The position numbers and the translations under genes are program-made. The notes below the pieces were generated by a model, which was given only the letters and a program-made list of their open reading frames with translations, was not told the DNA's origin and made no database searches. From Desulfosudaceae bacterium (GTDB taxonomy: Bacteria > Desulfobacterota > Desulfobacteria > Desulfobacterales > Desulfosudaceae), in the NCBI GenBank assembly GCA_963674745.2, contig CAXXDV010000001.1, positions 2,368,001-2,432,000 of the forward strand: 64,000 bases of DNA. Reading direction: 5' to 3'. Positions 3,482 through 6,146 of this stretch are shown piece by piece. Position 1 is the first letter of the stretch. Each line of letters begins with the position of its first letter.

Positions 3482-3724
3482 CTAGACGACGAAGAGCAGC
3501 AGCAATGCCACCACCAGAGAGTAAATACCGGTGGATTCGGTTACCGCCTGCCCGACCAGCATGGTCCGGGTTAACAGACCGGCTTCAGAGGGATTTCTGC
3601 CGATGGCCTCACAGGCTTTGGCCGCAGCCATTCCTTCGCCGACGCCGGGTCCGATGGCGCCCAGCCCCATGGCCAGTCCCGCACCCAAAAGAGCGCATGC
3701 TTCAACAATATTACCTTCGATCAT
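3482..3724 (-). CDS. atpE: ATP synthase subunit c (single hairpin, Na+-type motif)
   Basis: GPGVGEG...RNP...GQAVTESTGIY. Confidence 0.95.
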   Translation of the reverse strand: MIEGNIVEACALLGAGLAMGLGAIGPGVGEGMAAAKACEAIGRNPSEAGLLTRTMLVGQAVTESTGIYSLVVALLLLFVV

Positions 3725-3784
3725 TTTTTTCTCCTTCGCTATTATTTCCTATTCGCAATTAAGCCGGGGAAACACCCCCGAAAC

Positions 3785-4459
3785 TCAGTTTACCTGAACC
3801 GATATATATACGATGGTCAGCATGGTAAATACAAACGCCTGGATGGTACCGACAAACAATCCGAAAAAGAAACACAAAAACGGCGGCAGGACCAGGCTGT
3901 AGATCAAATGGGAAACCACCAGGATGATGATGGAGCCACCCATGATGTTTCCGAACAGACGAAAGGAAATGGATATGACCTTGGCCAGCTCACCGATGAC
4001 ATTCAACGGGAACATGATAAAAAAAGGCTCCATATATCCTTTCACGTAAGTTTTTATCCCTTTCTTTTTGATGCCGCAATAGTGGGCGATAACAAAACCC
4101 ATGATGCCCAGACTGAGCGGAACATTCAGGTCTTTAGTGGGCTCCTCAAGGAGCGGCACGATGCCCAGGGAGTTGGAGATCGCCAGAAACATGAACAGGG
4201 CGCAGATCATGGGTGCGTATTTTTTGGCCAGTTCTTTGTCCAGGGCGTCTTCCGCAAGGGCGTAAAGCTGTGATACAAAAAGTTCTCCCATCAACTGCAG
4301 GTTGCCTGGAACGAGGCTTTTTTTACGGGTTGCTAAAAAGGCAAATACGATCAATATACCCATGACCAGCCATGCCATCAGGATGACCTTAATATTAAAG
4401 TGCATGGTATAGTCGCCGACGGGAACGAGCAACTGGTATATTTTCCCGAGTTCATCCAT
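3785..4459 (-). CDS. atpB: ATP synthase subunit a
   Basis: SFRLFGNI and IQAFVFTMLT motifs. Confidence 0.95.
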   Translation of the reverse strand: MDELGKIYQLLVPVGDYTMHFNIKVILMAWLVMGILIVFAFLATRKKSLVPGNLQLMGELFVSQLYALAEDALDKELAKKYAPMICALFMFLAISNSLGIVPLLEEPTKDLNVPLSLGIMGFVIAHYCGIKKKGIKTYVKGYMEPFFIMFPLNVIGELAKVISISFRLFGNIMGGSIIILVVSHLIYSLVLPPFLCFFFGLFVGTIQAFVFTMLTIVYISVQVN

Positions 4460-4461
4460 TT

Positions 4462-4863
4462 CTATATATCTCCTGACAGTTTTTTGCGGAATCCGGCCCA
4501 TACCGGCGCGGTCAAGTAGTCCGCAAGAATACTCAACTGGACAAAAAAGAGTCCCGCTACGGTCGTTATCAGATTAAATTCAGTACGTTTTATGGCAATC
4601 ACCATGGGCACGGCCAATAAGACCATCCTGGCGCCGAGTGCCCCGGCGGCGATGACAGAGGCCGTTCTTCTGGTTTTTCCGATTTTCATGGGAATGGTGG
4701 CGCCCAGAGCGATAAAATTGACAATGCCGAACAGGCAGCCCAGGATCAAGCCCTTACCCATGGCGGTCAGGCCGCAGACGATTAAAGTGCCGCCGATGAT
4801 AATGGCGGCAATCAGTGCCCGGGAGCAGTACTTTTTTTCTGTCTGCCGGATGGCGTCCATCAA
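4462..4863 (-). CDS. atpI: ATP synthase protein I
   Basis: Four TM helices; directly upstream of atpB. Confidence 0.8.
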   Translation of the reverse strand: MMDAIRQTEKKYCSRALIAAIIIGGTLIVCGLTAMGKGLILGCLFGIVNFIALGATIPMKIGKTRRTASVIAAGALGARMVLLAVPMVIAIKRTEFNLITTVAGLFFVQLSILADYLTAPVWAGFRKKLSGDI

Positions 4864-5120
4864 TTTTTTCCTTCGCCGGACTCATCGTCCGTTTGAGTGG
4901 TGACGGCCATAATCTGGCGATAAACGACATTGGCCCCGCCAACAACACCCAGAATGGTGAAAACCGTTATAAAAATTCCTCTGGTGCCTAACCACCCATC
5001 AATTAAATAACCGATATAAAAACAAAATATAATGCACCCGGCCATTGTCAGGCCGATCTGCATGGTGATCTGCAGGTTTTCCGTCCAGGCGCTGTTTTTT
5101 TTAAAATCAAATTTAAACAT
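4860..5120 (-). CDS. AtpZ/AtpI family protein
   Basis: IGYLIDGWLGT...GVVGG two-TM pattern; in the atp operon. Confidence 0.8.
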   Translation of the reverse strand: MFKFDFKKNSAWTENLQITMQIGLTMAGCIIFCFYIGYLIDGWLGTRGIFITVFTILGVVGGANVVYRQIMAVTTQTDDESGEGKN

Positions 5121-5180
5121 GGCCGTTTCTGTTCGTCGGTCACCCGTCATTGTTTTTGTCGTCTGCCCGGAATATGTTTT

Positions 5181-6146
5181 TTAAATAACAAAGATCAGGA
5201 TGAACGCGATGACCAGGGAATATATTCCGGTTGACTCCGATACCGCCTGACCGACCAGCATGGTCCGGGTCAGAATGCCCGCGTGTTCTTCATTTCTGCC
5301 GATTTCCTGAATGGCGCTGCCGGCCGTCATCCCTTCGCCGATTCCCGGCCCGATGGCGCCGATACCCATACAAAGCCCGGCGGCAACCAGTGCGATAGCA
5401 GCCGCAATGTCATTGGTCGGGTCGCACTTTCTGAACAGAAGTATCATGCTGATTAACAGGCCGTAAACACCGGTGGATTCAGCAACGGCCATGCCCAGCA
5501 GCATGACACTGGTAACCTGCTGGATCCCCTGTGGTTTACGCGCGATGGCCTCGCAGGCGGCCTTGGCCGCGAAACCTTCGCCGATGGCCGGTCCGATAGC
5601 CGCCAGTCCGACCGCAAAGCCGGCGCCCATAATGGCCGCCCAGGTCGGGGCAATCGGAAAATCGGAAAAGTTCAGGAACATCATGGTCAGCGCGATCGCC
5701 AACGCGTAAATGGCGGTTGTCTGGGATATGGAGGCGCCGATCAGCATATTGGTCGTAAGTTTGTCTTTGACTTCCGGCTGGCGGCTGATACCCGTACAGC
5801 AGGCGCCCGCCGGGAGGCCGGAACCGATACCGGCCCCGATGGCACCGAATCCCATGCATAACCCGGCGGAAATAAGAATAAAAATTGAAATTGTGGCTGT
5901 CTCGTCGATGGTGAACAGCAGCATCATGGCAACCAGCAGTGCGAAAATAGCCGAGGTCTCGGCAATGGCCTGTCCCATGAGCATATTTTTTAAAATATCA
6001 CCGGATCTTTCAGGGGACCGGCTGATGGCTTCACTGGCGCAAGAAGCCGTATATCCTTCACCGACAGCCGCACCGATGGCGCCCAGACCGATTGAAAATC
6101 CGGCGCCCAGCATGGCGGCTACACTAATCCACGATTGAATATCCAT
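5181..6146 (-). CDS. atpE: ATP synthase subunit c with four fused hairpins (321 aa)
   Basis: Four tandem c-subunit repeats ending [21 protein letters not shown] and SESTGIY. Confidence 0.9.

Follow-up and report, generated by a model that had tools for sequence, protein, structure and literature searches.

A conserved four-hairpin c subunit with one predicted ion-blind site in an accessory Fo operon of a Desulfosudaceae bacterium

We analyzed a window of 64,000 nucleotides from the genome of a Desulfosudaceae bacterium (Desulfobacterales; GCA_963674745.2, contig CAXXDV010000001.1, positions 2,368,001-2,432,000 of the forward strand) and focus on a gene, here called c4, that encodes a c subunit of F-type ATP synthase made of four fused hairpins. 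Positions are those of the window unless another contig label is given. The c4 gene (5181-6146, minus strand, with the stop codon at 5181-5183) is a stop-free open reading frame (ORF) of 321 amino acids in which Pfam finds four ATP-synt_C stretches (PF00137, E = 9.2e-63, 208.8 bits against a cut-off of 24). The score against TIGR01260 is 162 bits, above the cut-off of 43.95. On the same strand follow hairpin 1 (5907-6146), with the motifs VGEG and AETSAIF in its two helices, hairpin 2 (5667-5906), with IGSG and SQTTAIY and no carboxylate, hairpin 3 (5421-5666), with GPAIGEG and AESTGVY, and hairpin 4 (5184-5420), with GPGIGEG and SESTGIY. The carboxylate pattern by hairpin is E-Q-E-E: the helix-2 glutamate is present in hairpins 1, 3 and 4, and hairpin 2 has Gln142 (codon 5721-5723) in its place. 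The four hairpins and their motifs are exactly those listed by an initial annotation made from the sequence alone.

The hairpins are mutually 31-47% identical as protein, and hairpin 4 shares 65% identity with the single-hairpin c of the operon. AlphaFold2, run with 29 homologues, gave a model (predicted local distance difference test 94.7, predicted template modeling score 0.91) that consists of eight long helices forming four hairpins. In these 29 four-hairpin homologues, which reach down to 60% identity, E30, E63, Q142, T143, E271 and E304-Y309 are invariant, as are the Gly motifs and the residues R43/P45, R122/Q123/P124 and R203/P205; R284 is nearly so, and the loop of hairpin 4 reads RNE instead of RNP. 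The ratio of nonsynonymous to synonymous substitution rates (dN/dS), calculated against four orthologues with saturated dS, is 0.08-0.23 for each hairpin, the blind one included. We conclude that c4 is a real F-type c subunit with four hairpins in one chain and that it is conserved. As judged from its profile score, hairpin fold, helix-2 glutamate and Fo gene neighbors, it is a predicted AtpE protein (PF00137), and it would accordingly be a physical part of the rotating c-ring.

The c4 gene is the first of a set of Fo genes that all lie on the minus strand. Downstream are an atpZ-like gene for a small membrane protein of 96 amino acids (4860-5150; PF09527 ATPase_gene1, E = 5.1e-14), an atpI-like gene for 133 amino acids (4462-4863; PF03899, E = 4.2e-05, with 24.3 bits just below the cut-off of 25.1), and atpB for Fo subunit a (3785-4501; PF00119, E = 1.8e-51). 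The longest atpB ORF has 238 codons for amino acids, and the start is more likely Met15 (4459), which is preceded by AGGAG and yields the 224 amino acids found in six of six relatives. Next come atpE (3482-3724; PF00137, E = 2.3e-19), a single-hairpin c of 80 amino acids with GPGVGEG and TESTGIY, which bears out the earlier description of a separate atpE with the full Na+ motif, and atpF (2821-3300, GTG start; PF00430, E = 5.5e-15), a b/b'-like stator subunit of 159 amino acids. The Shine-Dalgarno sequence of atpE is strong (AAGGAG) and that of c4 is weak, in line with one abundant and one less abundant component of the ring. The window and each of six related loci carry the full set of Z, I, a, c4, c and b. 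Four genomes from other families have the order Z-I-a-c4-c-b, two from the same family have Z-I-c4-a-c-b, and the window has c4-Z-I-a-c-b. Across the six related operons the monomer c is 84-89% identical, versus 51-74% for c4.

Because c genes are repeated and similar, four separate genes might have been merged by misassembly or by a frameshift reading error, a concern that the initial annotation had raised itself. However, the c4 repeat units, spaced by 243/243/237 nucleotides, are only 60-78% identical as DNA, which makes a collapsed or expanded repeat implausible. Logan contigs from two runs of one sample, probably the source sample and thus non-independent support, cover 5246-6400 and 2219-5271 with zero differences to the window. 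The contig covering 5246-6400 spans all three hairpin junctions, and contigs break only at 5246-5271, within hairpin 4 where the sequence resembles atpE. Furthermore, the same single open frame is found in 179 of 301 sampled genomes of the order, and in closed genomes such as G005. On the basis of repeat divergence, the junction-spanning contig and recurrence across the order, we reject an assembly artefact, to which we give a negligible probability.

The host genome (G000; 99.96% complete, 3 contigs) contains two a genes and three c genes for one alpha/beta pair and one gamma. Its sole F1 operon lies at C1:1974942-1981008, about 0.39 Mb from the c4 operon, and encodes b', b, delta, alpha, gamma, beta and epsilon; the c4 operon has no F1 genes next to it. 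A canonical Fo operon is found at C1:1586768-1588450, with atpZ, atpI, a (229 amino acids) and a c of 95 amino acids that carries AQG and IESLCIY and a C-terminal extension of about 15 residues. By published motif rules this canonical c would be of H+ type or borderline, since position +2 is occupied by neither Ser, Thr nor Gln. The accessory and canonical a subunits share 32% identity, the RLFGN arginine is retained in each of them, and the accessory atpF is 27% identical to b' of the F1 operon. The c4 operon is therefore an accessory second Fo module (atpZ, atpI, atpB, c4, atpE, atpF) without F1, a feature that the initial annotation had not noticed.

To extend this count we used 61 genomes of the order with a completeness of 97% or higher; a multi-hairpin c is encoded in 32 of them and lacking in 29. 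Exactly one more a than gamma was found in 27/32 genomes with a multi-hairpin c versus 3/29 without; 26 of the latter 29 have as many a as gamma. The counts are ambiguous for the five remaining genomes of the 32: G295 and G060 yielded no gamma, G072 has its a in fragments, gamma is split over two contig ends in G084, and G078, at 98% completeness and 2% contamination, combines two distinct four-hairpin c loci with three a matches and one gamma. As a separate observation, G041, G071 and G090 may carry an accessory Fo with monomeric c only.

We next consider where the missing carboxylate places the dead ion site. In the ring of Fusobacterium nucleatum, Na+ is reported to bind between two subunits, with Glu32 and Glu65 from one and Ser66 and Val63 from its neighbor, and Tyr70 and Ser66 hold Glu65 (PMC3692424). 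For multi-hairpin c subunits, the ProAD rule has the preceding hairpin give [ST][STQ]xxY (PMC11738941 supplement). The initial annotation had taken ESTxxY as a Na+ signature and likened the helix-1 Glu to the two-carboxylate site of Fusobacterium, in agreement with PMC11738941 and PMC3692424, respectively. We compared Tyr at position +5 of hairpin i with the carboxylate on hairpin i+1 in 121 close relatives. Tyr is followed by a carboxylate on the next hairpin in 67 cases and by none in 1, and non-Tyr residues are followed by one in 8 cases and by none in 396; these counts are descriptive, as they come from related sequences and statistics would overstate the evidence. No positive association was found among these relatives for the opposite pairing direction. 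At the same position, the first hairpin has Phe and the last hairpin has Tyr in 120/120 relatives listed. Consistent with the ProAD rule and with the adjacent-subunit ligands of F. nucleatum, the covariation shows the Ser, Thr and Tyr of one hairpin to be the predicted partners of the next hairpin's carboxylate.

It follows from this covariation that Phe68 of hairpin 1, which replaces Tyr, and Ser109 and Gln142 of hairpin 2, which replace the two Glu, make up one dead interface. As predicted from its motifs, c4 has three live carboxylates and a single ion-blind site, which lies where hairpins 1 and 2 meet. The initial annotation had read the motif of hairpin 1 correctly; its Phe is not the mark of a weakened site of hairpin 1 itself, as it belongs to the Gln142 interface. 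Under the ProAD rule, hairpin 3 (E/E) obtains its missing ligands from hairpin 2 (T, T, Y) and hairpin 4 (E/E) from hairpin 3 (S, T, Y), hairpin 2 has no site, and hairpin 1 (E/E) needs Ser/Thr/Tyr from a ring neighbor. The Na+ ligand set of the monomer c is complete by the same rule, and hairpin 4 offers Ser/Thr/Tyr to the following ring member. By these motifs, the ends of c4 look designed for sitting between working neighbors.

The search for proteins with several ATP-synt_C domains across Desulfobacterota, which the initial annotation had suggested, was carried out at the level of whole genomes with presence defined as a match at E <= 1e-30. A c4-type match was found in 33/301 evenly sampled genomes of the phylum, in 179/301 sampled genomes of the order (59%, with a frame of about 325 amino acids) and in 10/13 genomes of the family. 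Within the order sample, matches occur in 133/221 high-quality genomes and in 105/156 genera. The four-hairpin architecture is thus common, not rare, in the order. Named carriers include Desulfococcus, Desulfonema ishimotonii, Desulfosalsimonas, Desulfarculaceae and Desulfosudaceae, and the source annotation of the relatives is merely 'ATP synthase F0 subunit C'. Literature searches returned no description of a bacterial F-type c with at least three hairpins, which is not proof of absence, and no characterized four-hairpin c of a sulfate reducer, of which the initial annotation likewise knew none, was found in the literature searched. A preprint of 2026 mentions 'multi-hairpin structures' without naming c4-type proteins (bioRxiv 10.64898/2026.10.01.756066), and an mBio paper from the same year goes no further than reporting several atpE copies in Desulfatiglandales.

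A word-indexed protein search gave 2039 matches of 176-562 amino acids at E <= 0.001 among 8000 scored candidates, and hairpin counts and carboxylate patterns were taken from the 120 matches listed. Among these 120, 28 have four hairpins (24 with E-Q-E-E, as in c4, and 4 with E-Q-Q-E), 75 have five (58 with E-Q-Q-Q-Q and 17 with E-Q-Q-Q-E) and 17 have six (13 with one Glu, 3 with two and 1 irregular). In a library clustered at 50% identity we found 2093 relatives at E <= 0.001, 91 of them at E <= 1e-30, and the hairpin number ranges from 2 to 15 among the best 150 of the 2093. A quick, weakly supported tree of hairpins suggests a grouping by position into first hairpins, a blind middle 'hairpin-2-type', penultimate hairpins and last hairpins. 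In this tree, last hairpins sit beside the operon monomers, and the extra hairpins of the five- and six-hairpin forms appear as copies of the blind middle type. The initial annotation had described c4 as c1 plus two c units; the same weak tree agrees with this for hairpin 4, which groups by the monomer c, and disagrees for hairpin 3, which falls in a separate penultimate class together with hairpins of the other multi-hairpin forms.

Two further groups were noted among the relatives. P0196, P0205, P0239, P0184 and about 40 other representatives are divergent four-hairpin c subunits of about 320 amino acids, 27-32% identical to c4, whose carboxylates follow E-Q-E-D or E-Q-E-E. The source of one member names it Candidatus Dependentiae, so that another phylum also has a four-hairpin F-type c with a blind second hairpin. 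The hairpins of this group form separate clades in the quick tree, and both common descent and convergence are possible. The other group consists of single-chain c proteins of 8 to 15 hairpins in which all Glu are kept, namely P0124 (1139 amino acids), P0135 (968), P0202 (784) and P0179 (631); the source of P0124 labels it a hypothetical protein from Promethearchaeota / Hodarchaeota (Asgard archaea).

The closest known system is the hybrid rotor of Acetobacterium woodii, which likewise has a multi-hairpin F-type c with Gln for Glu in its second hairpin beside a full-motif single-hairpin c. Its c1 (PDB 4BEM_J) is the nearest solved structure, with E = 3.6e-27 for hairpins 3-4 and 6.2e-26 for hairpins 1-2. 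In the fold comparison, the c4 model superposes on it with a root-mean-square deviation of 1.3 Å over 164 columns at 35% identity. No solved chain covers more than half of the c4 model, the highest TMq being 0.48. Hairpins 1-2 and 3-4 are equally similar to c1 (94.5 and 99 bits), and overall similarity therefore cannot decide which half of c4 is the 'c1 half'. In the alignment, c1 has AETSGIF followed by AQTTGIY, and hairpins 1-2 of c4 have the same signature, ETSxIF and then QTTxIY. The A. woodii ring is described as nine c2/3 and one c1 in an enzyme that synthesizes ATP (PMC9171764), and the same c1/c2 pair is reported at sequence level in Clostridium aceticum (PMC7911925). The Glu-to-Gln exchange in the second hairpin of c1, which the initial annotation had mentioned, agrees with both sources. 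The gene order atpI-B-E1-E2-F of A. woodii (PMC7911925) is mirrored by Z-I-a-c4-c-b in most relatives of the c4 operon. In contrast to c1, c4 has four hairpins instead of two, three live carboxylates, and Glu instead of Gln in helix 1. The A. woodii operon, atpIBE1E2(E3)FHAGDC, includes F1, whereas the c4 operon has none and stands beside a second, canonical Fo. Moreover, c4 is the first gene of the operon in the window, the host belongs to another phylum, and c4 is known from genes whereas the A. woodii ring has an established ratio of 9:1.

Other rotary ATPases share single features with the c4 module. The c11 ring of F. nucleatum (PDB 3ZK1) has the same Glu32/Glu65/Ser66/Thr67/Tyr70 set as the monomer c and hairpins 3 and 4; its c is about 53% identical over 73 columns, with sites between adjacent hairpins (PMC3692424). 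It differs in that one kind of single-hairpin subunit forms the entire ring, whose eleven sites are all alike, and in its complete F1Fo operon. In archaeal A-type and eukaryotic V-type c/K subunits, as in c4, hairpin duplication was followed by carboxylate loss, which would lower the number of ions per ATP. Such A/V-type c subunits are reported with 1, 2, 3 or 13 hairpins (PMC9171764; bioRxiv 10.64898/2026.10.01.756066). Alignments of V-type chains extend over no more than roughly half of the c4 model (TMq 0.40-0.42). We reject membership in the V/A-type K family, whose best NCBIfam V-type model gives 108.4 bits against a cut-off of 211; the partner genes of c4 are F-type a and b. Like the N-ATPases, the module is an accessory, patchily distributed gene set for a Na+-motif rotary ATPase beside a housekeeping F-ATPase. 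N-ATPase operons (atpDCQRBEFAG), however, have their own F1 genes, atpQ/atpR and a single-hairpin c, whereas the c4 operon is F1-less. This assignment is rejected as well, with N-type models scoring 127.6 against 302.1 for a, 44.4 against 224.7 for b and 67.8 against 130.85 for the monomer c; c4 exceeds the TIGR03322 cut-off only through the summing of its four hairpins. A fused c10 of Bacillus PS3 was reportedly engineered by Mitome in 2004. Such an engineered single chain is active and indicates that a ring can work when its hairpins are joined covalently at their periplasmic ends, as they would be in c4 (PMC8809890); it differs from c4 in being artificial, in having identical hairpins and in forming the whole ring from one chain.

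With moderate confidence, we propose that c4 and c form a hybrid Na+ ring like that of A. woodii, which docks on the single F1 and lowers the number of Na+ per ATP. In this model, an abundant monomer c and a rarer c4 would co-assemble into one heteromeric Na+-binding ring. The ring would pair with the accessory a, and the module's own b would tie it to the only F1 of the cell, so that the accessory Fo would act as an alternative to the canonical Fo on a shared F1. A b subunit is needed only to hold F1, and its presence in the module counts for docking of F1 on the accessory Fo. Likewise, c4 is always paired with the monomer despite its three operon positions, which supports a mixed ring. Each c4 would take four hairpin positions and supply three sites. 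A ring of 11 hairpins, a size assumed because the three closest solved rings are reported to have 11 hairpins each (PMC3692424, PMC9171764), would have 10 sites with one c4 or 9 with two, corresponding to 3.3 or 3.0 Na+ per ATP versus 3.7. The number of ions used per ATP is thus probably changed by c4. We infer expression, co-assembly and sharing of F1, as well as Na+ specificity and ring size, the last two by analogy from motifs and the nearest solved rings. The direction, ATP synthesis or Na+ pumping, cannot be read from the sequence.

A sodium cycle in the host is plausible, since Rnf genes are present and Rnf2, reported to be constitutive in Desulfobacteraceae, is described as Na+-pumping (PMC11887813). 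Of the three RnfD/NqrB-family genes in the host genome, one belongs to an Rnf cluster of the window (48039-54860, plus strand). This cluster encodes a class III multihaem cytochrome c, an RnfC-like protein, RnfD, RnfG, RnfE, RnfA and an RnfB-like protein of 700 amino acids that is fused to a pyridine-nucleotide-disulphide oxidoreductase / GltD-type domain. It resembles the Desulfobacteraceae 'Rnf2' with altered RnfB/C domains (PMC11887813).

Several points weigh against the proposed hybrid ring. The module is missing from a genome of the same genus (G010, 99% complete) and from one of the same family (G006, 95% complete), both of which have canonical a and c only, and is therefore dispensable. 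An extra a is also present in G041, G071 and G090, where no multi-hairpin c was matched at E <= 1e-25, suggesting that such a module may function without c4, though the second a of G090 is a fragment at a contig end. The case for co-assembly of c4 and c comes from gene neighborhood and motif logic, and docking of F1 on the accessory Fo is likewise a deduction. The weak Shine-Dalgarno sequence of c4 could equally mean poor expression. Our searches found no transcript, protein or biochemical record of c4 or its homologues, and no RNA dataset was listed as containing 2219-6400; the supplementary table of the Desulfococcus multivorans genome and proteome lists, under 'ATP synthase', the canonical Fo and F1 operon only, and as it omits the accessory Fo it gives no proteomic evidence either way. 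Finally, besides the descriptive nature of the covariation counts, the association is weaker among representatives at 50% identity, where a carboxylate follows 15/17 Tyr versus 133/289 non-Tyr hairpins.

The same assembly could instead run mainly backwards, spending ATP to export Na+ for ion homeostasis or to build a sodium-motive force, with blind sites raising the gradient reachable per ATP as in V-ATPases. We regard this as rather unlikely, though it would account for the relatives with a single carboxylate (58/75 five-hairpin and 13/17 six-hairpin relatives listed), a gearing like that of V-type ATPases, in which a low ion number is reported to allow steeper gradients (PMC9171764). An accessory module that is patchy even within a genus also recalls the Na+-exporting N-ATPases. 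However, c4 itself loses only one site in four hairpins and the change in gearing is small, an enzyme with a V-type c subunit is reported to make ATP at 90-150 mV (PMC9171764), and the A. woodii hybrid-rotor enzyme is a synthase, direction not being given by sequence. A ring built from c4 alone appears improbable. A ring of three c4 copies, for example, would have 12 hairpins with 9 sites and use 3 Na+ per ATP, in keeping with the threefold F1, and the monomer c would build a separate ring or fill gaps. Hairpin 4, with its ESTGIY, could complete hairpin 1 of another c4 equally well, and the engineered single-chain c10 ring works (PMC8809890), but the monomer c gene is kept in the window and in 6/6 related loci and is more conserved than c4, the five- and six-hairpin relatives fit a threefold symmetry less simply, and the sole characterized precedent is a mixed ring (PMC9171764).

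It is very unlikely that c4 is no working part of the rotor at all, that is, a paralogue that is silent or hardly expressed, or a protein with a role in assembly or regulation such as a ring-nucleating template absent from the finished ring. The weak Shine-Dalgarno sequence, the dispensability of the module in close relatives and the lack of an expression record among the sources searched would fit such a role. Set against them are purifying selection on all four hairpins, ion-site residues and loop Arg/Pro that are invariant in the 29 homologues, a coherent covariation of sites between neighboring hairpins that makes sense only if the sites are used, and retention of the gene in 105/156 sampled genera.

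The number of ion sites on the c-ring sets the ion/ATP ratio and hence decides whether ATP can be synthesized at a small driving force. Among bacterial F-type rings, the A. woodii ring is the only characterized one that contains a blind site, and C. aceticum has its twin at sequence level. The c4 family would represent the same principle in a more elaborate form, with four to six hairpins, an F1-less second Fo and a wide presence in a major order of marine sulfate reducers. Tentatively, many bacteria of the order may combine one F1 head with two interchangeable Fo, one of them canonical and by motif of H+ type or borderline, the other a Na+ Fo geared by a fused multi-hairpin c. Equally tentative is the idea that the series from three live carboxylates in four hairpins, as in c4, down to one in six is a natural gearbox that sets Na+/ATP by lineage; the conserved pairing of Phe with Gln and of Tyr with Glu suggests that whole sites are switched off cleanly. 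If true, swapping of Fo on a shared F1 together with hard-wired ion/ATP ratios would be a new bioenergetic principle in sulfate reducers living near the thermodynamic limit. Should the ring be mixed and F1 be shared, both the way in which hybrid rings reach a defined stoichiometry and the switching of coupling ion and gear by membrane-sector exchange would become testable in cultivable strains. A caution for annotation also arises, as 'ATP synthase F0 subunit C' covers proteins of 80 to about 490 residues with one to several sites.

The remaining features of the locus concern its regulation and its flanks. Between c4 and a divergent methylenetetrahydrofolate reductase gene lies an AT-rich intergenic region (6147-6546), presumed from its sequence to hold the promoter of the module, with one weak promoter-like match (9/12) at 6286-6257 on the minus strand. 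A near-consensus promoter-like site, TTAACA-16-TATAAT (11/12), is found in the 181-nucleotide spacer before atpF (3301-3481), and a short GC stem-loop, CGGGG...CCCCG, lies in 3725-3784, about 40 nucleotides upstream of atpE. These two elements may be an internal promoter and an mRNA processing or stability element, respectively. Downstream of atpF, a gene for an SCP2-domain (sterol/lipid carrier) protein of 201 amino acids (2219-2824, minus strand; PF02036, E = 6.6e-14) overlaps the atpF stop by 4 nucleotides, given a TTG start. No SCP2 counterpart occurs in the six related loci, and this gene is probably a lineage-specific passenger outside the Fo module. On the other flank, the methylenetetrahydrofolate reductase gene (6547-7416, plus strand) is adjoined by a minus-strand gene (7622-8446) for an FMN-reductase/flavodoxin-like protein with a Cys-rich C-terminal part.

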